In this document: piece by piece, positions 26,007-40,000 of the stretch
Position numbering within the stretch: the stretch's first letter is position 1
Layout of the letters: each line of letters begins with the position of its first letter
Origin: Planctomycetales bacterium
Lineage (GTDB): Bacteria > Planctomycetota > Planctomycetia > Isosphaerales > Isosphaeraceae
Assembly (NCBI GenBank): GCA_027451885.1
Contig: DAIDHX010000266.1
Location: 19,452 to 59,451, forward strand
Direction: 5' to 3'
Length of the DNA stretch: 40,000 bases
Translations under genes and position numbers: made by a program
The notes under the pieces: generated by a model
Seen by the model: the letters and a program-made list of their open reading frames with translations, nothing else
What the model was told of the DNA's origin: nothing
Databases searched by the model: none

Positions 26007-27524
26007 CTAGCGTCCCCGTGCCAGAATCTGGGCGCGCCAGAGGGCAAGCGTGTCGGCATCGGCGGCGGAGACGAAGGGTCTGGCCTGCTCGACGACGTCG
26101 AGTGCGCGTTCGATGGATTCTTCGGCCAGGGCGCGGCGGATTCCTGGCGCGACCGCGTGGTGGACATTGATGATGAGGGTTCCCTCGCTCGAGTCGCGTG
26201 CCCGCAACCGCTCAAAAAGCGCCCTGGCCATGCGCTCGGTGCGGCGATCGTCGCGCAGGCCCGCGGCTGAAGCCACAGCCTCCACCAGCCGGGGCGCATC
26301 GAGCCCGGCAAGATCGAGTGCATCGAGCTCAGCACCTGACGCACAGGCGAGATCGAGCGGATCGACCTGGTCCGGGTCGAGCACGGGCAGGCCCAGCCTG
26401 CGCCTGAGTCGATCGAAGGGATATCCCTCGTACAGCCCGGCCGCGGCGGGACGGGCCGCAAGCTGCTCACGAAAGCGAATCGCCGCCGCCAGCCGTATCC
26501 GCGTGAATGCATCGTCCCGAGCGGCCGCTTCGAGCGGCGTTGCGCCTGAAAGGCTCACGCGCGGGACGTGGATCCACTGATCCTCGAAGTAATGCTCGAT
26601 TCGTTCGCGCCTGAGGATCGCCGCCTGGTCGGGCTCAATCTCACCTTCAATGCGGAACATCCACACCGCCGCGTCCAGGAAGGCGAGCGGCAGCGGCCGA
26701 GCTTCGCGGCTGGCACGTTCGCAGTCGAGCTCGAGCCGCTCGACAAGCATCTCCTCAGCCAGCTCGAGCCGCTCGCGCGCGGGGCTCGACAGCCGCAGTG
26801 CACCACCACCAAGAAACACCGTGGCAAGCTGGTCGCGCGCGATCCCGGCCGCAGCCGCGGACTCATCGGGAATCGATTCCAGCCAGATGCAGGCGCGGAC
26901 GTCCGCGCGCTCACCCACCGCCGCCTCGGCCGAGTGCGGCAGGTCCGCCGCCTTGATCTGCGGAAATGTCTCCAGCAGCCGCTCGGTCAGATCGGGTTTC
27001 CACGGGATCGAAAAGGAATACTGCAAATCGTCCGCCAGCTCTTCCGCGCCCGCTCCCTGGCGCAGGACCGCGGCCAGAATCCACGCCTCCTGCGCGCGCT
27101 CAGGCTCGTGCGCGGAGTCGAGCGCGACCGAGCGTTCCAGGCTACGCACCGCAAGTGCATTCTCCCCCTGCCAGGCCAAAAGAACCGCCCGGTTGAACCA
27201 GCAGGCCGGGTCCGCGGGAAAGCGCTCGCAGAGCGATGCGTAATACCCGGTCGCTTGCTCCAGATCGCCCAGGTCGACAGCCGCCTGGGCACGCGCCTGT
27301 GTTCCCAGCTCACGCAGCCGAGGAACAGCGAGCGCGGCGGCCGGCAGCTCGCGCGACCGTTCCAGGATCTCGAGCGCCTGCAAAGCCGCCCTGGATTCAG
27401 GCTCAAGCGCGCACGCCTGGCGGAACGACGACCACGCCGCCAGCGGGCGCTCCAGCCGCAAATGCGCCCACCCCGCATGCACCAGCCGGGTCACGCGATC
27501 GTCTCTTGCCTGTTCGTCAGTCAT
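26007..27524 (-). CDS. TPR-repeat protein with uncharacterised C-terminal domain
   Basis: Only the C-terminal ~506 aa of the 823-aa ORF are credible. The upstream part is antisense to the fucosidase gene. TPR-like helices include AWSSFRQACALEPESRAALQAL, ATGYYASLCERFPADPACWFNRAVLLAWQG and ALAVRSLERSVALD. The start is ATG 27524 or 27545. Confidence 0.62.
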   Translation of the reverse strand: MTDEQARDDRVTRLVHAGWAHLRLERPLAAWSSFRQACALEPESRAALQALEILERSRELPAAALAVPRLRELGTQARAQAAVDLGDLEQATGYYASLCERFPADPACWFNRAVLLAWQGENALAVRSLERSVALDSAHEPERAQEAWILAAVLRQGAGAEELADDLQYSFSIPWKPDLTERLLETFPQIKAADLPHSAEAAVGERADVRACIWLESIPDESAAAAGIARDQLATVFLGGGALRLSSPARERLELAEEMLVERLELDCERASREARPLPLAFLDAAVWMFRIEGEIEPDQAAILRRERIEHYFEDQWIHVPRVSLSGATPLEAAARDDAFTRIRLAAAIRFREQLAARPAAAGLYEGYPFDRLRRRLGLPVLDPDQVDPLDLACASGAELDALDLAGLDAPRLVEAVASAAGLRDDRRTERMARALFERLRARDSSEGTLIINVHHAVAPGIRRALAEESIERALDVVEQARPFVSAADADTLALWRAQILARGR

Positions 27525-27701
27525 GCACTCGGCCCGCCGTCCCATGATGGTGAAATCCCGCGCAGTCACTTTCCCGTAAACCCAGCGCGGCGTCCACTCC
27601 GCTCGCCCCCCGATGCGCTTGACAGCATCCCGCACGCAAACGCATCGTGAGAGGCGCGCCAATTGATCCGTCCAGATCTCCGCGCTGCCAAAGGAGGGCC
27701 C

Positions 27702-29048
27702 ATGTCCAGAGCCGCGATGCAAATCCGCTCGCTGACACTTCTCGGAATCGCCACCCTGAGCGCGTTTGCAATTCCCACCCCCGCACACGCGGGCGAACCA
27801 ACCCCGAATCGCGAAGCCCGTGCCTGGTTCCAGGACGCCAGGCTCGGCCTGTTCGTGCACTGGGGTGTCTACTCCCTGCTCGAGAAAGGGGAGTGGGTCA
27901 TGGAACACGACAGGCTGCCGATCAGCGAATACGCCAAGCTCCCTCCCCGTTTCACCGCCAGCAAGTTCGACGCTCAGGCCTGGGTGGCGCTCGCAAAAGC
28001 CGCGGGCGCGCGCTATCTCACCGTCACCGCCAAGCATCACGATGGCTTCTGCATGTTCGATAGCGCACTCACCGATTACGACGTCGTCGATTCCACACCA
28101 TTTCATACCGACCCGATCAAGGCGCTCGCGGAAGCCTGCCGCCAGCAAGACGTGAAGCTCTTTCTCTACTACTCGCTGCTTGATTGGCACCACCCCGACT
28201 ACGACCCTCGCGGCAAGACCGGGCACTTCGCCGGCCGGCAGCTCAAGGGAACCTGGAAGCATTACGTCGCCTACTACCAGGGGCAGGTGCGCGAGCTCTG
28301 CACCCGGTATGGCGCGATCGGGGGCATCTGGTTCGACGGCGAGTGGGACCGCCCCGGCGCCGACTGGGACCTCGCCGGCACCTACCGCATGATCCACGAG
28401 CTCCAGCCCCACGCGCTTGTCGCCAATAACCACCACGCCGCTCCCTTGCCCGGCGAAGACTTTCAGATCTTTGAACAAGACCTCCCCGGTGAAAACAAGG
28501 CCGGATTCAACAAGGCCCGAATCCAGCCTGGATTACCTCTCGAGACCTGCCTGACCATCAACTCGTCGTGGGGCTACAACGCCGCCGATGAGAACTACAA
28601 AAGCGTTTCCGACCTCGTCCACGCGCTGGCACGCGCCTCCGGCCGAGGCGCGAACCTGCTCCTGAACGTCGGTCCGCTGCCGGACGGCAGCATCAGCGCA
28701 ACCTCGGTGACACGCCTGCGCGAGCTCGGCCAATGGCTCACCGCGCACGAGGAATCCATCCGAGGCACCCACGCCGGGCCGATCCCCGAAAAGCCCTGGG
28801 GCGTCTCGACCGCCAGGGGGCCCGTGGACCATCCGACTGCCATCTATCTGCACGTCTTCCACCCTGGCCCCGATACGCCCATCGTCCTCGATCGCAACAC
28901 CCCCTGGCAGCCCCGCCTGCTCGGCCGCTCCGTTCTGCTGGAAACCCGCGCAACAAAGTCCGGCGCGGAAATCGTGATCCCCGATGACATCCGCGACCCC
29001 ATCGACACCGTCATCATGCTCGAGCCGAAACCCGCGGCGAACCGCTAG
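27702..29048 (+). CDS. Alpha-L-fucosidase (GH29)
   Basis: ATG 27702 is preceded by AAGGAGGG, and the product begins with a signal peptide (MSRAAMQIRSLTLLGIATLSAFAIPTPAHA). GH29 core: FGLFVHWGVYS, GARYLTVTAKHHDGFCMFDS, FLYYSLLDWHHPDY, GGIWFDGEW. Confidence 0.92.
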   Translation: MSRAAMQIRSLTLLGIATLSAFAIPTPAHAGEPTPNREARAWFQDARLGLFVHWGVYSLLEKGEWVMEHDRLPISEYAKLPPRFTASKFDAQAWVALAKAAGARYLTVTAKHHDGFCMFDSALTDYDVVDSTPFHTDPIKALAEACRQQDVKLFLYYSLLDWHHPDYDPRGKTGHFAGRQLKGTWKHYVAYYQGQVRELCTRYGAIGGIWFDGEWDRPGADWDLAGTYRMIHELQPHALVANNHHAAPLPGEDFQIFEQDLPGENKAGFNKARIQPGLPLETCLTINSSWGYNAADENYKSVSDLVHALARASGRGANLLLNVGPLPDGSISATSVTRLRELGQWLTAHEESIRGTHAGPIPEKPWGVSTARGPVDHPTAIYLHVFHPGPDTPIVLDRNTPWQPRLLGRSVLLETRATKSGAEIVIPDDIRDPIDTVIMLEPKPAANR

Positions 29049-29332
29049 TCCCAGAGCTCGGCCCGTGTAAGCAGGGCATGATGCGAATCAGTCTCCATGT
29101 TCCCGCGTTATCAATGAACGCATGCTCGTTTCTATAACATAATATCCATGACCGTGATTTGTGTACGGTATTGCCTTGCGAACGATTCGCGAATGTGTTG
29201 GAGTTGAGAAAGCTGGGGCCGGGCGTACGCAAGCTCGTCCCGGTTCGCGGCAGGTCGGCGCTCCCAGCCGGCGACGATTGTCGGGCGCAGCGCGGGGGGT
29301 CGACGGCAATCCCTCTCGTCGCGAGGCGGACC

Positions 29333-31288
29333 ATGTCCCCTGCTCTCACCCCGGTTCAGGAATCTCCTGCCGAAATACAGCCAGCCGGCTTTACTCCCTC
29401 GGTCAACGATCTGGCGATCAAGGTTGGCACGGTCAATGGCTCGGGGAGCCAGTCGGCCAACCTGGCCATTCTTCGCGCCCTGTATTCCATGGGCATCCCG
29501 TGCAGCGGCAAGAACGTCTTCCCCTCGAACATCGAGGGGTTGCCGACCTGGTTCCACCTCCGGGCAAGCGCACAAGGGTACGTCGGCCACGTGCTCGACC
29601 CCAGGATCCTCATTTGCATGAACGAGGCCACTGCGCGCGACGACGTGCTCGCGCTCAGGCCAGGCGCGCTTTGCGTTTATCGCGACGACTTCGATCTCGA
29701 CCCGCGCACGCTCCGCGGCGACATCCAATTCTTCCCGGTGCCGTTCTTGAAGCTCGTGCAAGAAGCCTATCCGCCGGATAAAACCGACAAGCTGTACCGT
29801 GACAGGCTCCGCAAGGTCGTCAACATGGTCTACGTCGGGGTGCTGGCCTCGATGTGCCAAATTGAGATGGAGGCGATCGAGTGGGGCATTCGCCGCGAGT
29901 TCCCCGGGCGCAAGGCCAGGGCCGGCGAGGTGAACATCAACGCGGCCGCAGCCGGGTTTCGCTGGGCCGAGGCCAGCTTGCCCCCGGAACGACCCTACAC
30001 GGTCGCGCGAATTCCGGGCTCCTGGAACAAGATTCTGATCGAGGGCAACAAGGCCGCTGCGCTCGGCGTGCTCTTCGGCGGCGCGAGCGTGCTCACCTGG
30101 TACCCAATCACGCCTTCGAGCAGCCTGGCCGAATATGCGGAAGACTTCCTCAAACACCATCGAGTCGACGCGAACGGTAAGTGCAGCTTTGCGATTGTGC
30201 AGGCGGAGGACGAGCTGGCCGCGATCGGCATGGCCGTTGGCGCGGGCTGGGCAGGCGCCCGGGCGCTCACCGCGACCTCCGGCCCCGGCACGTCGCTCAT
30301 GGCCGAATTCGTTGGGCTCGCATACTTCGCCGAGATCCCCGTCGTCATCATCGACGTTCAGCGCATGGGGCCTTCCACTGGCCTGCCCACCCGCACCAGC
30401 CAGGGAGACGTGCTCAAGCTGCATATGCTCGGTCACGGCGATTGCAGACATCTCGTGCTCCTGCCCGGTTCCGTCGAGGAATGTTACAGCTTCACCATCG
30501 AATCGCTCGACCTGGCGCAGCGGTTCCAGACGCCCGTCTTCATGGCCAGCGACCTTGACCTGGGCATGAATCTCTGGCTCACCGACCCGTTTCGCTACCC
30601 TGACCGCCCCCTCGCACGCGGCAAGGTGCTCACGAAGGAAGATCTCGACCGCCTCGGACGTTTCGAGCGCTATCGCGACGCCGATGGCGACGGCGTTTGC
30701 GAGCGCACCTTGCCTGGCACCGAGCACCCCCTGGCCGCGTACTTCACCCGCGGCACCGGCCATAACGAAAAGTCGGGCTACAGCGAACGGCCCGACGACT
30801 GGAAACGAAACCTCGATCGGCTCGCACGCAAGCTCCAAACAGCCCGCCCGCAGCTCCCCGCTCCCGTCGTTGACGACAATCCCCACGCCAGGGTCGGGCT
30901 CATCGCGTATGGCGGCACGCACTACGCTCTCGTCGAAGCGCGTGACCTGCTCGCGGCCGAGGGAATCGAGACCAGTTACTGCCGCGTGCGCGCCTTGCCG
31001 CTCGCCGACGCCGTGTTCCAGTTCATCGAGCGCCATGAACGCGTCTACGTCGTCGAGCAAAACCGCGACGCGCAGCTCCAAACCCTGCTGCACGCGGAGC
31101 TTTGCGGGACGCTCGCGAACCGGCTGATCCCCGTCAACCACTACAACGGCACGCCCATCGCCGCCGAGAACATCGTCCGCCCAATCCTGGCACGGGAACA
31201 GAGCCCGTGCACATCCGGCTGGCCCGTCGCTGAGAGCGCTCATGAAATCGACCGTGCGCATCCTTCGTGCGAGCCCTCCACTGAATGA
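29333..31288 (+). CDS. korA: 2-oxoacid:ferredoxin (acceptor) oxidoreductase, fused gamma-alpha subunit
   Basis: N-terminal gamma-domain pattern IKVGTVNGSGSQSANLAILRALYSMGIPCSGKNVFPSNIEG, followed by alpha-domain GAALGVLFGGASVLTWYPITPSS and LTATSGPGTSLMAEF. Start at ATG 29333 (651 aa). The 722-aa minus-strand ORF opposite it is a shadow ORF. Confidence 0.9.
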   Translation: MSPALTPVQESPAEIQPAGFTPSVNDLAIKVGTVNGSGSQSANLAILRALYSMGIPCSGKNVFPSNIEGLPTWFHLRASAQGYVGHVLDPRILICMNEATARDDVLALRPGALCVYRDDFDLDPRTLRGDIQFFPVPFLKLVQEAYPPDKTDKLYRDRLRKVVNMVYVGVLASMCQIEMEAIEWGIRREFPGRKARAGEVNINAAAAGFRWAEASLPPERPYTVARIPGSWNKILIEGNKAAALGVLFGGASVLTWYPITPSSSLAEYAEDFLKHHRVDANGKCSFAIVQAEDELAAIGMAVGAGWAGARALTATSGPGTSLMAEFVGLAYFAEIPVVIIDVQRMGPSTGLPTRTSQGDVLKLHMLGHGDCRHLVLLPGSVEECYSFTIESLDLAQRFQTPVFMASDLDLGMNLWLTDPFRYPDRPLARGKVLTKEDLDRLGRFERYRDADGDGVCERTLPGTEHPLAAYFTRGTGHNEKSGYSERPDDWKRNLDRLARKLQTARPQLPAPVVDDNPHARVGLIAYGGTHYALVEARDLLAAEGIETSYCRVRALPLADAVFQFIERHERVYVVEQNRDAQLQTLLHAELCGTLANRLIPVNHYNGTPIAAENIVRPILAREQSPCTSGWPVAESAHEIDRAHPSCEPSTE

Positions 31289-31331
31289 CACACCGCACAA
31301 GCAATTCGATCACTGGTAACGCGAGGAAGCC

Positions 31332-32384
31332 ATGCCCAACCCAGCCACGATCACCGTCCACGACAACGGACACAGCTTCAACCTGCCCACGCTCGCCTTT
31401 CAGGGCCTGCCCTCCACACTCTGCAAGGGCTGCGGCCATAACAGCATCACAAGCCACCTGATCGAAGCCTGCAAGTCGCTTGCGGTGAACCCATACAAAA
31501 CGATCAAGATGTCAGGCATCGGTTGTTCGAGCAAAACGCCAGCGTACTTTCTCTCCGCCAGCCATGGCTTCAATGCGCTCCACGGCCGCATGCCTTCCGT
31601 GGCCACGGGTGCGATGCTCGCCAACCACAAGCTCCTGTGCATCGGCATCAGCGGCGACGGCGATACCGCCAATATCGGCATGGGCCAGTTTATGCACATT
31701 TGCCGCCGCAATGTGCCAATCGTTTACATCATCGAAAACAACGGTTGTTACGGGCTGACGAAGGGGCAATTCTCGGCGACCGCGGATCTGCACGCCCATC
31801 TCCGCAGGCCAGGTGGAGAAGAAAACCAGGTTCCGCCCTTCGATCTGTGCGAGCAGGCGATCACCGCGGGCGCCAGCTTCGTGGCGCGGTCGTTCGCCGG
31901 CGACAAGAAACAAATGATCGCGCTGCTCAAGGCCGCGATCGCGCATCGCGGCACGGCCGTGCTCGATGTGATTAGCCCCTGCGTCACCTTCAACGATTTC
32001 GAAGGCTCGACCAAAAGCTGGGACTGGGCCAGGGCGCATGAATCTCCCCTGCATGAGCTGGGTTTCGTACCGCGTTTGCCGGAGATCGAGGTCGAGCAGA
32101 CGCCTGGCGAGCCTGTGCGTGTGCAGCTCCACGACGGCGCATGGATCACGCTCAAGGCCCTGCGGCATGAAGAGCACAACGTCTCCAGCCGCGCCAGTGC
32201 ACTTGCGCTCCTCGAAGAAAGCCACGAGAACGGAGAGTTTGTGACAGGCCTGCTCTATCTGAACACCACGACGCCTAACTTCACCGAACGGCTCACGCTC
32301 GTCGATACACCGCTTGCGCTTCTTAGCGAGGACATGCTGCGCCCGAAGCCGGAGGTCCTCGAGAAGATCATGCAGACGCTCTAG
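31332..32384 (+). CDS. korB: 2-oxoacid:ferredoxin oxidoreductase, beta (TPP-binding) subunit
   Basis: CKGCGHNSI, the GIGCSS pattern, and the TPP-binding GDGDTANIGMGQFMH...NNGCYGLTKGQ. It lies 43 nt downstream of korA with a GAGGAAG RBS. Confidence 0.92.
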   Translation: MPNPATITVHDNGHSFNLPTLAFQGLPSTLCKGCGHNSITSHLIEACKSLAVNPYKTIKMSGIGCSSKTPAYFLSASHGFNALHGRMPSVATGAMLANHKLLCIGISGDGDTANIGMGQFMHICRRNVPIVYIIENNGCYGLTKGQFSATADLHAHLRRPGGEENQVPPFDLCEQAITAGASFVARSFAGDKKQMIALLKAAIAHRGTAVLDVISPCVTFNDFEGSTKSWDWARAHESPLHELGFVPRLPEIEVEQTPGEPVRVQLHDGAWITLKALRHEEHNVSSRASALALLEESHENGEFVTGLLYLNTTTPNFTERLTLVDTPLALLSEDMLRPKPEVLEKIMQTL

Positions 32385-32404
32385 CGCTCGCCGCGCGGTC
32401 CCGG

Positions 32405-34741
32405 TCATTTCGGATGACTGGGCACGTGATCCTTCGCCACGCGAAGGTCGCACGTGGGCGGCACGTCGAGCTTGCGGATCGGATTGGCCAGCACGCGATC
32501 GCCCTCCCGCAGACCCTCCAGAATCTCGCTGATGCCGCTCCCAGAATCGCCGAGCTTCACCGCCCGCCATTCCAGCTCGCCGTCTCCCTTCCGCACCGCG
32601 ACCTGATAACCACCACCGTCATCGCCCACTGAATCGACCGCGGTGCGCGGAACCGCGAGCGCGCGTTTCTTGCGCAGGACGATCGACGCCTGGACCTTTT
32701 GACCCGGCCGGAACTTCGCCGGCGGCTTCTCGATCGCAATCGTGGTTGAATAGAACTTTCGCTTGTCCGAAAATATGTTGGTCGGATCAGGCACTGGCGC
32801 AATCTCAGAAACATGCCCGGTCGTTCGAAAGATACCCTCCCGTTGCTGGATCTCAAGCTCCACAGCGTTCGATTCGTGAACCTGCCTAACAGCGTATTCC
32901 GGCAGCTTCACCTTCACGACCGGGGGAGCATGGTCAACATCCTGAATAAACGCGATGATCTGCCGCTCACGGACAGTCGCTCCCTGGGCGATGTTGATCT
33001 TGCTCGGCCGATCGGGATCGTTGGCGTGGACCACAATCCCATCGCCAGGGGAGGTGACCTTGCACGCCTCGACCTGAGCCAGCAGTTTCTTTTCCCGGGC
33101 GCTCTCGATTTCGAGCGCACTCTGGCGGGTGATCTCGTCCCCGCGCGCTTTTCGGACCGCTGCCTCCAGCTCCCTGATCTTCCTGGGTCGCAGAATCTTC
33201 TCGAATTCGTCCTTCTTGATCTGAGCCTGCTCGTGCGCCAGCCTGTTCAGGTCGTGTTCCTTTCGAGCCTGTTCCAGACTGGCGCCGATCTCGACCGCGG
33301 CCTTGAGCTCCGCGAGCGTGGCCTGCCGATCCCGCCCGCCAATCAATCCCTGCGCCTGGCCCTCGATTTCCGAGACACGATCGAGCCACGCCTTGCTGCT
33401 ATCCATGATCCGCCTGGCCTGCTGGGCTCGAGCATCCAGGAGATGCTGCTCGTTCCTTGCCAGCGATTCCTGATAGTCCGCCAGTGCTCGCTCGGCGGTC
33501 TCGCGCGAAAGCCGAGCGCTGGCGAACCCAGCCTCGGCGGAACGGGCCCGCGCGCTTTGGGGCGTAAGCCTTTCCCTGAGCGGCCTGGCGTCCAGCCGTG
33601 CCACCACATCACCCTGCTTCACGCGAGTCCCTTCCTCGATCAGCCAGAGGATCCGATTCGTCCCTTCGACCCCGGATTGGGCGTATCTCGTTCGCCCCGC
33701 CGCGAGGTTCCCGGTCAGGTCGAGCCGCTGTTCAAGCCCTGTCATCTCCACGGTCACAAACAGGGGAATCCCATCGGCCTGTGGGGTCTTGCCCCCCGGC
33801 TTCGCAGCCTTCGTGGTTTGCTCATCGCGCCCGGTCAGGGCTCGACCCGGCGTATGATCAGGACCAGGTTTCTGAACTCCACCGATCGCAATCAAGCCAC
33901 CCGCGCCGACGCCCACGCCGAGACAGAGGATCGATCCAGCAACTGCAATCTTGCAAAGCCTTGTGATCGTCATGGACGTGAGGACTCCTCGCGCGAGCGC
34001 GGCGGCCGCACCGCCGGCAAGCGCCTTCGCTCTCGATTGCTGGAGCATGGCCTGAACAGCCGCCTGCGCAAGCGCAACAGGCACGCTCGAGCTAGATCCA
34101 GGGGGCAGGATCAGACCCTGCCCTGGCCCCGGCTCAAAACCTCGCCGTTTCAGACGCTCGCCCAGCCGCTGCCGCGCTCGCGATAGCCGGCTCTTGACCG
34201 TCCCCATCGGCCATCCGAGATTTCGCGACGCTTGCTCATGAGAACAACCTTCAAGATCACAAAGCACCACGGCCGCGCGCAGCCGCTCGGGCAACCGCGC
34301 GATCTCCTCGTGGACGATCGCGCAAAGCTCGTCAGCCGGCTCGGCTACGGTGTCAGTGGCAATCCGAGCAGCCAGGCGCTCATGGCGCCGCCGCCTCGCC
34401 GCCGTCGTTCGTGCGTGCATCGCGGTGCGCCTCGCAACCTCGAACAGCCACGGCCCGAGCGACTCGCGCGCCCAGAGCCCTCGCGCCTTGCGCAGCAAGA
34501 TGAGAAATGTCGCCTGAAACGCATCGTGTGCGTCGGCTTCGTCGTCGAGTACACTCTTGCAAACGCGCAAAACCAGCGGCCCATGGCGCTCGACCAGAAC
34601 GCCAAAGGCCGCCTCCGCCGCGTCGCCATCCTCTTGCGAGAAACGCTCGAGAAGCTGGCCGTCGCTCAGCTCGCGCACCACCCCCACGCTGAAGAGCGTG
34701 TGGATCGGCCTCAGAACCGCGCCCCGATTCGGTTTCCCCAT
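32405..34741 (-). CDS. Fusion protein: ECF (group 4) sigma-70 factor + single TM helix + HlyD-family periplasmic adaptor (membrane fusion protein) module
   Basis: Residues ~1-200 carry sigma region 2 (DAFQATFLILLRKARGLW...WLFEVARRTA) and a region 4 HTH (LPERLRAAVVLCDLEGCSHEQASRNLGWPMGTVKSRLSRARQRL). A TM helix follows (ITRLCKIAVAGSILCLGVGVGAGGLIAIG). Then come a lipoyl half (KQGDVVARLD), a long coiled coil, SPGDGIVV, a beta-barrel, and the C-terminal VKLGDSGSGISEILEGLREGDRV. GGAG lies 9 nt upstream of ATG 34741. Confidence 0.85.
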   Translation of the reverse strand: MGKPNRGAVLRPIHTLFSVGVVRELSDGQLLERFSQEDGDAAEAAFGVLVERHGPLVLRVCKSVLDDEADAHDAFQATFLILLRKARGLWARESLGPWLFEVARRTAMHARTTAARRRRHERLAARIATDTVAEPADELCAIVHEEIARLPERLRAAVVLCDLEGCSHEQASRNLGWPMGTVKSRLSRARQRLGERLKRRGFEPGPGQGLILPPGSSSSVPVALAQAAVQAMLQQSRAKALAGGAAAALARGVLTSMTITRLCKIAVAGSILCLGVGVGAGGLIAIGGVQKPGPDHTPGRALTGRDEQTTKAAKPGGKTPQADGIPLFVTVEMTGLEQRLDLTGNLAAGRTRYAQSGVEGTNRILWLIEEGTRVKQGDVVARLDARPLRERLTPQSARARSAEAGFASARLSRETAERALADYQESLARNEQHLLDARAQQARRIMDSSKAWLDRVSEIEGQAQGLIGGRDRQATLAELKAAVEIGASLEQARKEHDLNRLAHEQAQIKKDEFEKILRPRKIRELEAAVRKARGDEITRQSALEIESAREKKLLAQVEACKVTSPGDGIVVHANDPDRPSKINIAQGATVRERQIIAFIQDVDHAPPVVKVKLPEYAVRQVHESNAVELEIQQREGIFRTTGHVSEIAPVPDPTNIFSDKRKFYSTTIAIEKPPAKFRPGQKVQASIVLRKKRALAVPRTAVDSVGDDGGGYQVAVRKGDGELEWRAVKLGDSGSGISEILEGLREGDRVLANPIRKLDVPPTCDLRVAKDHVPSHPK

Positions 34742-34853: not shown

Positions 34854-37085
34854 TCACTGCATCCCAGCCGGCTGGTGCGCGATCGGGTACTCCGGCTCGG
34901 CATCCACCAGTACCGACTCGCCCACCTCGAGACCCTTTTTGACTTCCACCTCACCGACGCTCATCCGGCCCAGCTCCACCGTCCGGATCTCTACCCCTCC
35001 ACCCCGCTTTCGCACCAAAACCCAGGGCTCATTGTTCCTGCCCTTGCCCCTGTAGACCGCCGTGAGCGGAACACTCAATGTATTTTCAGATTCTGCTGTA
35101 ATAATCTTTACACCGGTTGAGTCGCCCGCCTTCAGGGTGAGGCCCGCTGGAAGGCGCTCGAATGGAAGGCGCTCGAACTCGATCATGACAGTATAGAGCA
35201 TCTCATCCCCTACCAGGTTTAGCGGCGAGAGCGCCTTGACTCGCCCCTCGACATGAAGGCCTCCGCCAGTCTCGACCAGCGCCCGCATCCCGGGCAGGAC
35301 TTCCTTGATCACGGACCGACGCGCCTGAACTGCCAGTTTCACTGCGCCCGGCTTGTGAACTTGCAGAATCGGACGGCCGGGGGGAACAACCGCACCCAGC
35401 ATCGGGGGGATCCCCGGTGAGTAGACCACCACCCCCTCGGCTGTCGCCCGCACAAGCGCGTTCTCAACCGCGCGTTTGCGGCGATCGAGCTCGCTTTGAA
35501 GCTGATTGACGTTCTCGTCTGCCCGCCGTACCACCTCCTGGGCTGCCGCGGCCTTGAGAGTCAGCTCCGCGACCGCGCGTGGGGCTGCGAACCGAGCATG
35601 GGCGGATTTTTTGGCCTTCAACTGCCTGAGCTCGATCTGATCCTGCGCGAGTGCGCGCCGCGCATCGACCGCGCGATCATTGATGTCGAGCAGTGACGCG
35701 ATTTCAACAGCCGAATCGAGCGACCTGCCCTCAACCTTTTTCTGCGCAGCCTCGACACGCTTGAGCCTCCCCTCGTCATCCTGAATCGCGGTCTCGGCTG
35801 CGCGGATTCTTGCATCGAAATCCGCCTCTTCCACCGTCGCGTTCTCGCGGGCTTCCGCCACCGCCAGCTCGGCAGACTTGAGAGCCGCGATGACCTTTTG
35901 CCGGTCAGCTCTTGATTCGTTGAGATTGATCTCGGCCTTCGTGACCAGATCGCGCTGACCCGACGCGTCGAGCTCGAAGAGAAGATCCCCCGGTTTCACA
36001 AGCGAACCGTCGGGCGCCAGCTTGAGGAATCGAGATCCGGTGTCGAGAGAGGAACGCACCACCTGGAGCACGACCGGAACGAATACTCCCTGAACCTCAA
36101 CCCGCAACTGGAACGTGCGAGGAACCAGCGTCAGCCAGCCGGGCTCGTTTTCCACGGCGTCCGCGGGCTTCTGCTGGGCGGGTTTCTGCTGGGCGGGCGC
36201 GTTCGGCGCCGCAGGCCCGTCCGGGGTGCGGCGCTGGGCGACTGCCGAGAGGCTAGTCATGCCGAGCCCGAGCAAGGCCACGGCGGCAACCTTGGCCAAA
36301 GAATGTAAGCTCATGGACGTGAGAACTCCTTGTGCAAGTGTGGCGGCAGCGCCGCCGGTCAGCGACTTGATCGAGGATTGATCGACAACGACTTCCACAG
36401 TGGCAGCCAGCAAGTGGGCGGGCATGGCGGCCGAGCCCGCTCCTGGATCGCCCAGGAGCACAAGACCCAGCTCCTGGCCATATCCAAGCTTGAGCAAGCG
36501 CGCACGCAGCCGTTCCCGAGCCCGGGAGAGCCGGCTCTTGGCCGTACCCACAGGGACACCCAGGCGCCTGGCGGCGTCTTCCTGGCTCAAGCCCTCCAGA
36601 TCGCAAAGCACGATGATGGAGCGAAACCGGTCGGGCAAGCGCGCGATCTCCTGATGGATGAGCGCAAGTCCGTCGCGACTCGCTTCCGTGCGCGCTTCGG
36701 GCCGCTCGCGTGCCGCTGCCTGTTCGTGCTTCTGTCTCCGCGCGTGCTTTGAGCGCGCATGGAGAGCAGTTCTGCGCGCAACCTGGAATAGCCAGGGACC
36801 AAGCGTTTCCCGGGTCCAGAGCGAGCGGCTTTTCCGCAATAGAATCAGGAACGTCGCCTGGAACGCATCCTGCGCGTCGCTTGCGTCGTGAAGTACGCCG
36901 CGGCACACGCGCAGGACCATCGGTCCATGCCGCTCGACAAGCGCCGAGAACGCTTGCCGGGCGATCTCATTCGAGCCGCTCGCGAACCGCTCCAGGAGTT
37001 GACCATCGGAAAGTCCGCGCGTCACTCCCAGGCGATAAAGCGACTCCAGGTCGCGCAAAACCGAGCCCCGGCCCTGGCTCGACAT
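34854..37085 (-). CDS. Fusion protein, paralog of 32405..34741: ECF sigma factor + TM helix + HlyD-family adaptor module
   Basis: The architecture is the same, and the sigma part is roughly 60% identical by eye (SDGQLLERF, VERHGPMVLRVC, DAFQATFLILLRK, GPWLFQVARRTA, VLCDLEGLSQEDAARRLGVPVGTAKSRLSRARERL). The TM helix is SLHSLAKVAAVALLGLGMTSLSAV. The HlyD part includes KPGDLLFELD, a coiled coil, ATAEGVVVYSPG and VELGRMSVGEVEVKKGLEVGESV. Start set at ATG 37085 (MSSQGRG...), which aligns with the paralog N-terminus and has GGGGAGG 8 nt upstream. The ORF is open to 37190. Confidence 0.85.
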   Translation of the reverse strand: MSSQGRGSVLRDLESLYRLGVTRGLSDGQLLERFASGSNEIARQAFSALVERHGPMVLRVCRGVLHDASDAQDAFQATFLILLRKSRSLWTRETLGPWLFQVARRTALHARSKHARRQKHEQAAARERPEARTEASRDGLALIHQEIARLPDRFRSIIVLCDLEGLSQEDAARRLGVPVGTAKSRLSRARERLRARLLKLGYGQELGLVLLGDPGAGSAAMPAHLLAATVEVVVDQSSIKSLTGGAAATLAQGVLTSMSLHSLAKVAAVALLGLGMTSLSAVAQRRTPDGPAAPNAPAQQKPAQQKPADAVENEPGWLTLVPRTFQLRVEVQGVFVPVVLQVVRSSLDTGSRFLKLAPDGSLVKPGDLLFELDASGQRDLVTKAEINLNESRADRQKVIAALKSAELAVAEARENATVEEADFDARIRAAETAIQDDEGRLKRVEAAQKKVEGRSLDSAVEIASLLDINDRAVDARRALAQDQIELRQLKAKKSAHARFAAPRAVAELTLKAAAAQEVVRRADENVNQLQSELDRRKRAVENALVRATAEGVVVYSPGIPPMLGAVVPPGRPILQVHKPGAVKLAVQARRSVIKEVLPGMRALVETGGGLHVEGRVKALSPLNLVGDEMLYTVMIEFERLPFERLPAGLTLKAGDSTGVKIITAESENTLSVPLTAVYRGKGRNNEPWVLVRKRGGGVEIRTVELGRMSVGEVEVKKGLEVGESVLVDAEPEYPIAHQPAGMQ
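35148..35177 (-). repeat. Perfect 15-bp in-frame tandem duplication inside the second sigma-HlyD gene
   Basis: TGGAAGGCGCTCGAA occurs at 35148-35162 and again at 35163-35177. On the minus strand this encodes FERLP-FERLP. Confidence 0.9.
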
Positions 37086-37142
37086 GGCGTTTACCTCCCC
37101 TCCACTCTCGCGGAAATCTCCCAAACCACGATGCCTCTCCCT

Positions 37143-37179
37143 GGATAATGCCGCGCCAGGGGCCGCGAGTTCCATTTTT
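37143..37179 (-). promoter_or_regulatory. Candidate ECF-type promoter upstream of the second sigma-HlyD gene
   Basis: Minus-strand reading: AAAAATGGAAC-N12-GCGCGGCATTATCC. TGGAAC lies at 37174-37169 and the 14-mer at 37156-37143. Spacing and sequence match the 34783-34823 site. It sits 58 nt upstream of ATG 37085. Confidence 0.45.
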
Positions 37180-37211
37180 GACCGAACCATTGCCTGCTCG
37201 CACGCCAGGTG

Positions 37212-38387
37212 CTACCGCCTACTCGCGCGGGAGTCGACCGCCACCACATCGCCGTCCTTCAGGCCCGCCTTGATCTCGACCCGGTCCTGACTCGTGAGAC
37301 CAGGGATCACCGGGCCATCCTCGATCGATCCCTTTGAGACCCGTACCCGAACGCACACCGATCCCGTCGAACTGCCGGAGCGGATGAGTGCTGCCTTCGG
37401 CACCGTGAGCACGTCGTTCAACTGCGCTGCCACGATGGCGGCCTGCACTCTCATCCCCGGCCGGAGCGCGGCAGGACGGCCATCGACCTCGACGATCGCG
37501 GTATAGTCAGGGCTTGCCAGCCCAGATAAACCGGACCTGCGCACAGGCGCAAGCGGCTGGACCGTGCCCTGACCCGCGTGTTCTGCCACGCCTGCCTGCT
37601 GAAGAACGGCCTTCGTTCCGGGCACAACCCCCTCGAGGTCGGAATCGGCCACCGTGCAAGTCATCCGAAGCGGCCCGTTCGCAGGATCGATCATCGCGAA
37701 CACAAGCTGGCCCTCGGCCAGGCGCGAACCCACATGAATCCCCGGCGCGGAATCCGAGAGCGAATCCGCATAAACGACCATGCCGTCGCACGGAGCAACC
37801 AGATTGGCGCCATCGAGTTTTCGCTTGAGACAACGTTCTTTCATGTGTGCACGCTCCAAATCCGCCTTGCGCTTGAGCTCCTCCGCGCGCTTTCTCAAGA
37901 TCCGCCTTCAGAGCCTGGATTCTGGCCCGACTTGTATACTGCTCGAGAATCCGCTTCTTCCCTTTCAACTGCTCCAGCCTGACCCGCGATTCCTGGAGCT
38001 TCGTATTCAGGGAGTCGACGCGTTCCTCCACTGAAAATGTGGCAGCAATTTCCGTGGGTGTCTGCACGACACCGGCCTTGAGCGCGTTGCGGACGACAGT
38101 TAGGCCCTTGCCAGCCTCATCAAGCCGGTCCTCGTTGTATCTGGCCCACTCGGCGGCCTGCTTTTCCTCGTTCGCGATCGCGCTGCGTCGATGACGAGCG
38201 TTCCCGGTTCGTACTCAAGGAGGTCGATCTCGGTGATTTCTCGGTTGAGCTGGGCATTCCTCGAAGCCACGGATGCGGACTGGGCGTCGATCGTTGCATG
38301 CGAAGTGAGCACGGATTCCTGGTGAGGCAGCGAGTCCGGGTCGTGGAATTGTCTCGCGCTCCGATCCTGCGTGCCAGATTCCAGCAC
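37212..38387 (-). pseudogene. Degraded HlyD-family adaptor gene: 5'-truncated (no sigma, TM or first beta domain) and broken by at least two frameshifts
   Basis: Three consecutive minus-strand ORF pieces lie in different frames and together read like one adaptor. Piece 1, 38387-38100: ...SVASRNAQLNREITEIDLLEYEPG. Piece 2 is a frame open from ~38210 to 37507: NEEKQAAEWARYNEDRLDEAGKGL...TKLQESRVRLEQLKGKKRILEQYTSRARIQALKADLEKAR. Piece 3, 37898-37212: AEELKRKADLERAH...LVAPCDGMVVYADS...beta-barrel...VEIKAGLKDGDVV. The shifts map near 38180 and near 37890, the latter in a GCGCGCGG run. Confidence 0.6.
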
Positions 38388-38402: not shown

Positions 38403-39884
38403 CTAGAGTTCCCAGAGCCGGCGGCCCTTGAGGAACATGGTCAGGTAGCCGTCCTCGCTGACCTTGAGAACGGGGCCGTGGAGCGAAGCCGCCTGACCGG
38501 CGAGGGTGCGCGCTCCCTGGAACGCGCGGCCAAGCTCGAGCGCCTCGGGCGCGATGCGCAGAATCGCGCCGAAGGTGAGCAGCCTGCCGTTCTGATCCAC
38601 GACCACCGCGCCATCGAGGCTTGCAATGGATTCGAGCACCGCCGGCGCGATCTCGGACAACTTTCGCCCGCGGACAACATGGTGCAGCGCTCGCTTGGCG
38701 TGCCGGGGCGAGAGATTCTCCGGATCCTCGGGATCGTCGAACGCTTCCTCGGCGGCAATCTGGTCGACAGGCGCGATGAGCTCGGGAACCGACTCCTCCG
38801 GGTCGCGCAGAACCACGAAAAGCGCTCCCGTGCGCGCCTCGCCCAGATTGAGCGCAGCCTCAAAGAGAGTGTCAGCAAGACCAGGCCAGCCGGTGGTTCC
38901 AATCGCTTCCTTCCAGACAGCGAACTTGCTCGGGATATCGAGCAAGCGCCAGCGGGCGTCGCTATAGCTGAACATCATGGTTCCCCGCGCGAAGACCTTG
39001 ATCTCCTGCGCGGGGGTGAGCACGGCCACAACGTGCCCCCCGGCCCGCGTGGCCTTGGCGTGGCTGACATATACCCGGGGACAAGGATGTTCAAGAGGCT
39101 CAGTGCCTTGCACCTCGTTCGCCCAGCTCGCGATGTCAATCATGCGTATCAGGTCGCCCTGGCGATCAACCAGAAAGACCGTCCGCACGCCGTCGCAAAG
39201 CCGGTGGAATCCCTTGATCCCCGTGAGACGGGCGTTGAACATCGGCGCGCCTTTGCGATCACCCGGAATCAGACCCGGAATCTGATCCTCTGTTCCCAGC
39301 AAGAGCGCGCCCGTGGAGACCCGGCGGTTCTCATACGTCGAAAGTGCCGCAACACGAAGCGCCTCGATCGCCGCCGGCAGACGATACGAATCGACCGTGT
39401 CCAGATAGTCGGCGACGATCAGGTCTTCGTTGGGATAGTGAAACCGGTCAAAGCGATGGGCCAGTTCCTGGTTGAACAGGCCGCGAAAGCGAATGTCGAT
39501 CGCACGCACGACGACCTCGATCATCCTCCGCTCGGTTGCAAGCAAGGGAGAAGCCGTGCCCGGCAGGAACGAGAGACGCGAGCCCAGCCACTCGATCTCA
39601 ACCCCGACCCCGTCGGAGTATTCATGCAGCCGGTAGTAGGTCTCGTCCGAGGAGAGATCCCAATCGATGAAGCTCCGATCACCCAGGAATTCCAGGCGTG
39701 CGTCAGGAAAGAAGTGCTCAAGCGCGCGGCGGAGCACCATCTGGTAAACGCCAACCACACGCGAGATCGGCGGTGGCTGACGATCCGGTCGGGCAGGATC
39801 GCTGGCGGCATGAAAATGATCGGGTTCCTGGACGCTGGCGATAGGTTCCCGCATCGATCGCTTGCTCCCGATCTCCAGACCCAT
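38403..39884 (-). CDS. Hypothetical protein with two tandem DisA_N (diadenylate cyclase)-like domains, catalytic motifs degenerate
   Basis: The 493-aa ORF has clean coding character. The C-terminal ~150 aa follow the DAC-domain order as I recall it from CdaA/DisA. TGALFVVLRD corresponds to GALIVIER, LDGAVVVDQNGRLLTFGAIL to HDGAVII...AA, QGARTLAGQAAS to GTRHRAA, and LKVSEDGYLTMF to IVVSEETG.IS. The middle region repeats the pattern more weakly (STGALLLG; CDGVRTVFLVDRQGDLIRMIDI; SHAKATRAGGHVVAVLTPAQEIKVF). An alternative start is ATG 39854, with GGGAG 10 nt upstream. Confidence 0.5.
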   Translation of the reverse strand: MGLEIGSKRSMREPIASVQEPDHFHAASDPARPDRQPPPISRVVGVYQMVLRRALEHFFPDARLEFLGDRSFIDWDLSSDETYYRLHEYSDGVGVEIEWLGSRLSFLPGTASPLLATERRMIEVVVRAIDIRFRGLFNQELAHRFDRFHYPNEDLIVADYLDTVDSYRLPAAIEALRVAALSTYENRRVSTGALLLGTEDQIPGLIPGDRKGAPMFNARLTGIKGFHRLCDGVRTVFLVDRQGDLIRMIDIASWANEVQGTEPLEHPCPRVYVSHAKATRAGGHVVAVLTPAQEIKVFARGTMMFSYSDARWRLLDIPSKFAVWKEAIGTTGWPGLADTLFEAALNLGEARTGALFVVLRDPEESVPELIAPVDQIAAEEAFDDPEDPENLSPRHAKRALHHVVRGRKLSEIAPAVLESIASLDGAVVVDQNGRLLTFGAILRIAPEALELGRAFQGARTLAGQAASLHGPVLKVSEDGYLTMFLKGRRLWEL

Positions 39885-40000
39885 TCCCGGCTTCCGGGAA
39901 CCAGAACGATTGTAGCGAGCAGGTCAAAAACCGGGGACGTGAGTTCTTCGGAAACAAGCACAATCGCTCCCTCTCACCGACTCTTTGGGAGCACCTCGGC

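Follow-up and report, generated by a model that had tools for sequence, protein, structure and literature searches.

The minus-strand gene at positions 38403-39884 of the window, the whole 40,000-nucleotide stretch of a Planctomycetales bacterium (Isosphaeraceae) that we analysed, encodes a soluble three-domain signalling protein, and this protein belongs to a large uncharacterised branch of the diadenylate cyclase (DAC) superfamily. The explanation that we favour, to which we give about an even chance judging from its conserved motifs, its predicted structure and the analogy with known systems, is that it is a sensor-regulated cyclic-dinucleotide synthase in which a dead copy of the DAC fold would play a regulatory part. 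For a long time DAC enzymes passed for a uniform, single-product family, and work from 2023 to 2026 has brought to light many unstudied DAC architectures, some of them producing other nucleotides or serving in phage defence. A comparable layout has already been described for the anti-phage CdaG/DS-2C proteins; the conserved planctomycete protein presented here is itself unstudied.

The reading frame comprises 493 codons plus a stop and has a GC content of 63.2% (64.7% in the window) and a GC3 of 75%. It is a real gene, as the earlier note had taken it to be, with orthologues at 60-79% identity. A scan for promoters and terminators around it gave nothing informative. AlphaFold2 (AF2) modelled the full protein with a pLDDT of 86.9 and a pTM of 0.86, folding the N-terminal 335 residues as two globular alpha/beta domains, and no hydrophobic helices were evident in the 493-residue sequence. 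Residues 1-35 (39780-39884, minus strand) form an N-terminal extension that is poorly conserved in our alignment A1, with a pLDDT below 50 at residues 1-28, and the start codon may truly lie farther downstream than the annotated residue 1. The first domain, residues 36-164 (39393-39779, minus strand), is predicted by AF2 to consist of a helix, four strands and three helices. It is conserved inside the Isosphaeraceae and variable among distant relatives, it has no Pfam or NCBIfam match, and a profile search with the DACNG, DACNV and DacZ_A models returned zero matches at the locus. We consider it a probable sensor or regulatory domain.

The C-terminal domain, residues 336-493 (38406-38879, minus strand), is a divergent DAC (DisA_N) domain according to Pfam, hhalign and Foldseek. 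The Pfam model DAC (PF02457) scored 27.1 bits (E 3.3e-6) over residues 342-485, which is marginal against its cut-off of 27, and it was matched by 30 of 57 family members at E <= 1. Profile comparison gave a clearer signal: the family profile of this domain aligned in register with 29 canonical planctomycete DACs over 122 columns (hhalign probability 95%, E 2.9e-8). When the full AF2 model was compared with the PDB using Foldseek, the top 50 matches were all DisA, CdaA, CdaS or CdaM, an assignment of fold made on a predicted model and not on an experimental structure. Sequence searches of the PDB, started from the protein and from a family profile of 20 sequences, found no DAC match and returned only chance hits to Ypd1 at E ~1. 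The strings that had been read as DAC blocks in this part of the protein (GALFVV, DGAVVVD, GARTLAG and LKVSEDGYLTMF) all occur where they had been placed.

The motifs of this domain can be followed residue by residue. D424-G425-A426 (38607-38615, minus strand) is the invariant DGA motif, preceded by Leu at the place of the canonical His. At the position of GTRHRAA stands G457-A458-R459-T460-L461-A462-G463 (38496-38516, minus strand), in which G457, R459 and A462 never vary and T460 hardly does. S476-E477-D478-G479 (38448-38459, minus strand), with S476 and D478 invariant, falls on the S222-E223-E224 stretch of Listeria monocytogenes CdaA. In the alignment to that protein D424, G425 and A426 correspond to D171, G172 and A173, and G457 and R459 to G201 and R203, while the pairing of the metal-binding acid depends on the reading: hhalign puts E477 on E224, and a gap-free reading puts D478 there. 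The equivalent of T202 is Ala. It had been proposed that DGA is retained and that GTRHRAA has become GARTLAG, and so it is; the further statement that the RHR motif is lost is right for the His and the second Arg, which are replaced, but not for the first Arg (R459), which is invariant together with the Gly that opens the motif. D-G-A, G-x-R and S-x-D are invariant in the 57 sequences of our alignment A3, whose identity goes down to 19%. Of the 274 full-length family members, 256 carry the motif set, with DGA in 250 of these 256. Among the same 256 sequences RHR is absent from every one, and its position carries the signature G-[AS]-R-T-[LKT], mostly as GARTL (116) or GSRTK (114).

Residues 165-335 (38880-39392, minus strand) make up the middle domain, a degenerate DAC fold or pseudo-DAC that we recognised by modelling this part alone with AF2 (pLDDT 79.5) and searching the model with Foldseek. 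Its top 47 PDB matches were all DAC chains, drawn from four DAC classes (E 2.8e-5 to 6e-3, TM-scores 0.41-0.54), and the next fold followed at E 0.13, a gap of more than 20-fold. In the AF2 model the middle and C-terminal domains arrange their helices and strands in one and the same order. At the level of sequence profiles, hhalign aligned the middle domain with the C-terminal one at a probability of only 11.8% and out of register, and with canonical DACs at 0.4%. As this similarity is undetectable by profile, the repeat is visible at the fold level only, and the tandem is thus seen in the predicted structure only. The earlier note had seen in this protein two tandem DAC domains, the first repeating the sequence pattern of the second more weakly. 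Two predicted DAC folds behind an unrelated N-terminal domain uphold the tandem, but the weaker repeat in sequence is not recovered by profile comparison, even though the strings cited for it (GALLLG, CDGVRTVFLVDRQGDL, SHAKATRAGG and VAVLTPAQEIKVF) are all at their claimed positions.

The pseudo-DAC has conserved residues of its own. It opens with the signature [ST]-Y-E-N, here Y184-E185-N186 (39327-39335, minus strand), of which Y184 and E185 vary neither among the 57 sequences of A3 nor in the plasmid-borne relatives. K224 is also invariant, as is D231-G232 (39189-39194, minus strand), the counterpart, in register, of the DG in DGA. Only this D-G is kept from DGA: SHAKAT occupies the position of GTRHRAA and T-P-A that of S-E-E, so that the phosphate-binding and metal-binding positions are gone.

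Within the window's order the gene occurs in 110 of 121 genomes and in 51 of 53 genera, and it is there a near-universal core gene passed on by vertical descent. The family as a whole extends much further, with 833 cluster representatives (at 50% identity) matching at E <= 0.001 and several phyla covered, Pseudomonadota included. A few of the distant relatives are plasmid-borne, and one, on an Agrobacterium vitis plasmid, adjoins a type II CBASS operon; PADLOC reported nothing for the protein itself. Paralogues at 43% identity have a middle domain that matches positions 33-87 of DACNK (PF21753, 'probable sensor domain DACNK') collinearly at 16-18 bits, below the cut-off of 27. The window protein itself did not match this model of DACNK-type DACs, and none of the 301 Planctomycetota genomes that were scanned with it rose above the cut-off. 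The same genome also encodes a canonical cyclase of DacZ_P-DAC type (contig C93, 312 aa; DacZ_P 115.6 bits, DAC 79 bits, motifs DGA and GTRHW), with which the window protein is related in BLASTP only at E 0.072. A canonical cyclase likewise co-occurs with a family member in a Phycisphaerae genome.

The closest known system is that of the CdaG/DS-2C proteins (NCBIfam NF053872), which have the architecture DACNG-DACNH-DAC, belong to the DS-2 'CBASS-DAC' anti-phage operons and go back to Galperin (2023) as cited in PMC13640721. They have in common with the window protein an N-terminal domain of unknown kind, a DAC-like domain without catalytic residues and a C-terminal DAC. DACNH has been reported as a DAC, though a very distant one devoid of catalytic residues (PMC13640721). 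NF053872 was the top NCBIfam match of the window protein and of five tested relatives, with a collinear alignment (DGA at about 424 here and about 425 in the model), but the scores, 10.4 bits here and 12-16 in the relatives, lie far below the equivalog cut-off of 630. The differences are several. Whole-genome scans with DACNG (PF21752) and DACNH (PF21750) gave no match at the locus; members of our family measure about 460-490 residues against about 550-575 in CdaG/DS-2C; R-T-L stands here at the RHR position; and the gene is a core chromosomal one of native GC content that does not lie beside a CD-NTase or CBASS.

The DAC domains of CdaA/DacA and DisA (PF02457; PDB 6HVL, 4RV7, 3C1Y, 9Y4S) share their fold with both halves of the tandem. 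Their DGA and G-x-R motifs, and probably their S-acidic motif, are in register with the C-terminal half, in which the equivalents of H204 and R205 are replaced. CdaA places three N-terminal transmembrane helices before its DAC, and there are none here. DisA has an N-terminal DAC, a linker and a C-terminal HhH, whereas the DAC is C-terminal in the window protein and was the only domain found in a Pfam scan at E <= 10. PanS, of the Panoptoo/PanDA system (PMC13640721), is a single domain of about 150 residues whose operon, located in defence islands, also encodes a 2TM-beta effector, and in all this it is unlike the window protein; it does illustrate that a DAC with non-canonical motifs can be active and that a DAC site, once altered, can yield another product. 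The earlier note had left room for the protein to be a member of a family already characterised. No characterised family claims it in our comparison, which covered CdaG/DS-2C, DACNK-type DACs, DisA, CdaA and PanS; Galperin is said to have defined 22 DAC families in 2023.

According to the mechanism we favour, the C-terminal domain would be an active nucleotidyl cyclase, and the C-terminal DACs of two molecules would probably pair head-to-head, as those of canonical DACs do. The product would be c-di-AMP or a related cyclic dinucleotide, and the dead copy and the N-terminal domain would together form a built-in regulatory module that gates this pairing upon some cue. PanS, an active DAC, produces cUA through the catalytic motifs DGF and GGR, which are instances of D-G and G-x-R, and loses synthesis when they are mutated (10.64898/2026.08.10.743927); D-G and G-x-R can therefore suffice. 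Because this same core survives in the C-terminal domain, along with S-x-D, the domain looks active and not dead. The proposed synthase would also parallel CdaG/DS-2C, a comparable layout in which DS-2C proteins synthesise c-di-AMP in vitro (10.64898/2026.08.10.743927). Against activity, only one RHR residue out of three is unchanged, and a second source of c-di-AMP is not obviously needed beside the canonical cyclase of the same genome. The Leu in place of the His of HDG, the marginal Pfam score, the failure of the PDB sequence searches to find a DAC and the two possible pairings of the metal-binding acid also weigh against it.

A different possibility, which we hold only tentatively, is that the changes at RHR have cost the protein its cyclase activity and left a non-catalytic nucleotide sensor, one that would bind ATP, ADP or the c-di-AMP made by the DacZ_P-DAC cyclase and relay the signal through the other domains. 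Degenerate GGDEF and EAL domains, which serve as receptors of c-di-GMP, offer an analogy, but we know of no receptor derived from a DAC. The replaced H204 and R205 equivalents, the change from T202 to Ala and from the His of HDG to Leu, the marginal Pfam score and the coexistence of a canonical cyclase here and in the Phycisphaerae genome all suit such a sensor. So do two earlier results: changing RHR to AAA in CdaS abolishes c-di-AMP synthesis (PMC4568413), and in DacA the Thr preceding RHR, an Ala in the window protein, contacts phosphate (PMC6368335). What speaks for catalysis instead is that D-G, which makes the ribose and metal contacts, G-x-R and the acidic S-x-D have stayed invariant over long evolutionary distances, as is typical of catalytic residues, and that the named catalytic motifs of the active PanS are only DG and GxR. 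The two DAC folds could also face each other within one chain, as in the intramolecular pseudo-dimer suggested by the earlier note, and form an asymmetric site with only one catalytic half. Its product would then not be c-di-AMP but an asymmetric dinucleotide or a linear one, for instance pppApA. This is unlikely in our view, although both folds do lie in one chain in a confidently predicted arrangement (the pTM given above), the invariant D231-G232, in register with DGA, suggests with Y184, E185 and K224 a conserved functional surface, and PanS shows that a broken symmetry of the DAC dimer alters the product. DS-2C proteins nevertheless make ordinary c-di-AMP with a pseudo-DAC in place, and the pseudo-DAC of our protein lacks the phosphate-binding and metal-binding positions. 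A more specific version, rather unlikely as well, would have the dead copy hold the acceptor nucleotide on its conserved surface of Y-E-N, K224 and D-G while the G-x-R-T of the live copy activates the donor, in a site of single-turnover type that yields a linear or mixed dinucleotide instead of c-di-AMP; if true, it would give c-di-AMP-making cells a second, independent DAC-derived signal.

That the middle domain is an unrelated alpha/beta domain which merely resembles a DAC fold, so that there is no tandem, would fit the failed profile comparisons and the modest TM-scores, but it is improbable given the 47 leading DAC matches from four classes and the gap that follows them, the shared order of helices and strands and the invariant D-G, which occupies the equivalent loop. 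In the paralogues, moreover, the middle domain has a weak match (18 bits) to DACNK, which in other DACs is an N-terminal domain, and DACNH provides a precedent for so distant a DAC (PMC13640721). The genomic context bears on another proposal, namely that the gene heads an operon of ECF-sigma/HlyD fusion genes and is functionally tied to them. In the window such elements do follow on the same strand, a remnant at 37212-38387 and then 34854-37190 and 32405-34741, and one related locus (L007) has the same arrangement. The other 79 of the 80 related loci do not, and korB/korA or unrelated genes follow there; no such neighbours surround the paralogues or the distant relatives, and the first downstream element is itself a decayed HlyD remnant. 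As the sigma-HlyD genes were inserted in a particular lineage, the regulatory link that had been suggested fails, and we regard the tie as highly improbable. The conserved neighbours are a divergent Y_phosphatase2 gene and a convergent korAB, with korB/korA directly downstream in 27 loci. In the window and around the orthologues the surroundings (Y_phosphatase2, GNAT, PMT_2, korAB) are housekeeping genes and no defence island. Two minus-strand ORFs, 31512-32570 and 29132-31300, had appeared by tblastn to be conserved operon partners and were rejected, as Pfam identified them as antisense shadows of the plus-strand korB and korA; the conserved relation to korAB is therefore convergent and not operonic.

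The family can be told by a distinctive signature, consisting of L-DGA, G-[AS]-R-T and S-x-DG in the C-terminal domain and [ST]-Y-E-N in the dead copy. It matters because it is large, spans several phyla and supplies a core gene to a whole planctomycete order. Its product or ligand, once shown, would establish what the DAC fold needs at the least for catalysis and would also reveal the role of a built-in pseudo-DAC, a question that it has in common with CdaG/DS-2C.

The minus-strand ORF at 38403-39884 encodes a 493-aa protein and belongs to a gene family whose architecture, residue conservation, phyletic pattern and synteny we established. By its GC content (63.2%; window, 64.7%) and its coding periodicity (GC3 75%) the gene looks native to its genome, and the strings that an earlier note had quoted from it were all found in their places. 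The sole Pfam domain was the diadenylate cyclase domain (DAC, PF02457; residues 342-485), which barely reached its cut-off (27.1 bits against 27); an NCBIfam scan gave no more than a faint match to DS2_3_antiphage (10.4 bits), PADLOC returned no match, and a PDB sequence search with the protein and the family profile as queries returned none either. When a profile of residues 333-493 was aligned with that of 29 canonical planctomycete DACs, 122 columns were covered with a probability of 95% (E-value 2.9e-8), and GALFVV, DGA, G-x-R and V-S-E/D-G were in register. On profile similarity, then, the C-terminal domain is a true DAC. Using the sequence of L. monocytogenes CdaA as a reference, D171/G172/A173 (here D424/G425/A426), G201 (G457), R203 (R459) and S222 (S476) are kept, T202, H204 and R205 are changed to A458, T460 and L461, and the acidic residue at E224 is retained as either D478 or E477, the exact pairing being ambiguous. 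The RHR motif, previously reported as lost, is thus replaced at its last two positions, but the equivalent of R203 and G457 remain. This half loss matters because the crystal structure of PanS, an active minimal DAC that makes cUA, shows D71, G72, G107 and R108 as the conserved contacts on the floor of its active site (10.64898/2026.08.10.743927), exactly the four positions retained here; the catalytic motifs of PanS are given as DGF and GGR (10.64898/2026.08.10.743927).

The rest of the protein was approached through structural models. In a confident full-length AlphaFold2 model (pLDDT 86.9, pTM 0.86), residues 168-314 and residues 336-492 show matching successions of helices and strands. Residues 165-335 were also modelled separately from their own alignment (pLDDT 79.5) and used in a structure search of the PDB, where the top 47 matches were all DAC domains (DisA, CdaA/DacA, CdaM and CdaS; E 2.8e-5 to 6e-3, TM-score 0.41-0.54) and the first non-DAC fold appeared at E 0.13. 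Profile-profile comparison of this middle domain with the C-terminal part gave a probability of 11.8% in an out-of-register alignment, and with the canonical DACs one of 0.4%; the middle domain of the paralogues matched Pfam DACNK weakly though collinearly (16-18 bits, cut-off 27). As modelled, the middle domain adopts the DAC fold but shows no sequence signal of it. The proposal of two tandem DAC domains therefore stands for the C-terminal copy by profile and for the middle copy by fold, but the middle repeat has no detectable profile-level sequence similarity. In the fold register D231-G232 occupies the DGA position, SHAKAT that of TRHRAA and T-P-A that of S-E-E, so this pseudo-DAC would retain the ribose-contacting D-G and lack the phosphate and metal positions. 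Ahead of it, residues 36-164 are modelled as one helix, a four-stranded sheet and three helices, with no Pfam or NCBIfam match; residues 1-35 are not conserved and have low model confidence.

Orthologues at 60-79% identity occur throughout the Isosphaeraceae, the only family of the order; a search of 121 genomes of the order, from 53 genera, detected the gene in 110 genomes and 51 genera. Genus g287 of the order had no match in its eight genomes, which are up to 98% complete, and many genomes of the order had two to five matches, either paralogues or fragments. A paralogue at about 43% identity is also present in many genomes; the order-wide search did not find it in the window's own. Over the phylum as a whole the gene is scattered, with matches at E <= 1e-10 in 7 of 301 genomes. 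An exhaustive search collected 833 cluster representatives at E <= 0.001, including a clade of proteins of about 455 aa at 19-25% identity, with records labelled Reyranella, Methylibium, Phycisphaerae and Riflebacteria among its members. Invariant in 57 sequences are Y184, E185, K224, D231, G232, T235, W312, R351 and G353, together with D424, G425, A426, G457, R459, A462, S476, D478 and G479 from the motifs of the C-terminal DAC. The signature [LIV]-DGA ... G-[ASG]-R-T-[LKT] ... S-x-D-G is carried by 256 of 274 full-length members, none of these 256 having RHR, and [ST]-Y-E-N lies upstream of it in nearly all cases.

A pseudo-DAC placed ahead of a DAC is a known design, since the anti-phage proteins CdaG/DS-2C are described as DACNG-DACNH-DAC in passages of two August 2026 preprints that cite Galperin (2023); DS-2C enzymes make c-di-AMP in vitro (10.64898/2026.08.10.743927). 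Arguing from sequence and by analogy, we give roughly even chances to a regulated cyclase, in which the C-terminal DAC would be active and the dead DAC and the N-terminal domain regulatory. The C-terminal domain would most likely still bind nucleotide and metal and catalyze phosphodiester formation, because D-G, G-x-R and S-x-D are invariant and PanS and DS-2C offer precedents, and the dead copy with the N-terminal domain would most likely control productive pairing between active domains. CdaS is inactive after DGA-to-AAA or RHR-to-AAA mutation (PMC4568413), which leaves some room, next to the PanS contacts that are retained, for a C-terminal DAC serving as a non-catalytic nucleotide sensor; we hold this to be rather unlikely. 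Less probable still is the intramolecular pseudo-dimer of the earlier note, with a hypothetical asymmetric site between the dead and live DACs of one chain and an altered product.

In the window, the DAC gene is followed on its 3′ side by a decayed HlyD remnant (37212-38387, minus strand) and two adjacent minus-strand ECF-sigma fusions of 778 aa each (34854-37190 and 32405-34741), in which Sigma70_r2 and r4_2 are joined to a long C-terminal extension that, in one of the two, contains an HlyD_3 domain. Within the remnant, a 228-aa ORF (37212-37898) that lacks an N-terminus aligns with the last two-thirds of TIGR01730 (RND/HlyD periplasmic adaptors, 59.8 bits). The suggested regulatory link to this block was not borne out, as the arrangement was seen only in one locus (L007) among 80 related loci. 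Plus-strand genes for korB-like (31332-32384, TPP_enzyme_C) and korA-like (29159-31288, POR and POR_N) 2-oxoacid:ferredoxin oxidoreductase lie beyond it; the long minus-strand ORFs 31512-32570 and 29132-31300 were rejected as genes, being antisense shadows of these two. Further along, an 823-aa minus-strand ORF (26007-28478) runs with its 5′ part into an alpha-L-fucosidase gene on the plus strand (27663-29048, 313.6 bits); the weak TPR matches of this ORF lie only in its middle, and its start is probably over-extended. The conserved order is PMT_2, GNAT and Y_phosphatase2 (upstream, opposite strand), the DAC gene, and convergent korB then korA; of the related loci, 63 had a divergent Y_phosphatase2, 51 had GNAT and 27 had korAB. 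Because korA/korB converge directly on the DAC gene in many relatives, the sigma-HlyD block is a lineage-specific insertion between the DAC gene and korB. Upstream of the DAC gene, a repeat array continues to the end of the contig (L083 4800-6676 on C266, just past window position 40000; L097 1-1100). It consists of units of about 334 bp, at least five of them and 60-90% identical, and of a 46-bp tandem repeat. The assembly's Y_phosphatase2 orthologue, the neighbour expected here, is on a different contig, C108, roughly 1 kb from its start, and the break in the assembly is therefore probably due to the repeats.

Five distant chromosomal relatives that were inspected stand alone among housekeeping genes, and no partner gene is common to the five. 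Among 72,556 plasmid records only three held a relative. On Agrobacterium vitis plasmid pRvVAT039d (NZ_AP023285.1 12390-18190), a 426-aa relative annotated only as "hypothetical protein" (Y-E ... DGA ... G-G-R-T ... S-Q-DG) directly adjoins, in convergent transcription, a complete type II CBASS operon (patatin, DncV-like CD-NTase, ThiF and MPN). The relative on a Bacillus megaplasmid neighbours HNH, AAA, NucS and recombinase genes, and that on a Paracoccus plasmid is truncated, with IS elements on either side. Y-E, W312 and DGA are common to all three, and G-x-R and S-x-DG also to the two full-length ones.

The one canonical cyclase of the window's genome is a 312-aa DacZ_P-DAC protein on another contig (C93; L001 1420-2358, minus strand; DacZ_P 115.6 bits, DAC 79 bits) that keeps DGA and in which RHR reads RHW (GTRHWAA). 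A Phycisphaerae genome with a family member likewise has a canonical DAC (133 bits), so in both genomes tested the family supplements a canonical cyclase instead of replacing it. DAC exceeded its cut-off in 114 of 121 sampled Planctomycetota genomes, mostly at about 120-149 bits in frames of about 250-330 aa; the window's class scored about 80 bits, like its DacZ_P-type cyclase. These scores suggest that the main cyclase type differs between this class and the other sampled Planctomycetota. With CdaG/DS-2C the family shares the same kind of layout, and the corresponding NF053872 is always its top NCBIfam match; unlike CdaG, it scores 10-16 bits there against a cut-off of 630, our protein has no DACNG or DACNH match, and its gene has no defence context. 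The family would thus be an undescribed variant of the pseudo-DAC/DAC design, though it may already have a letter name in Galperin (2023), with a distinct active-site signature and a housekeeping-like inheritance pattern as its own marks.
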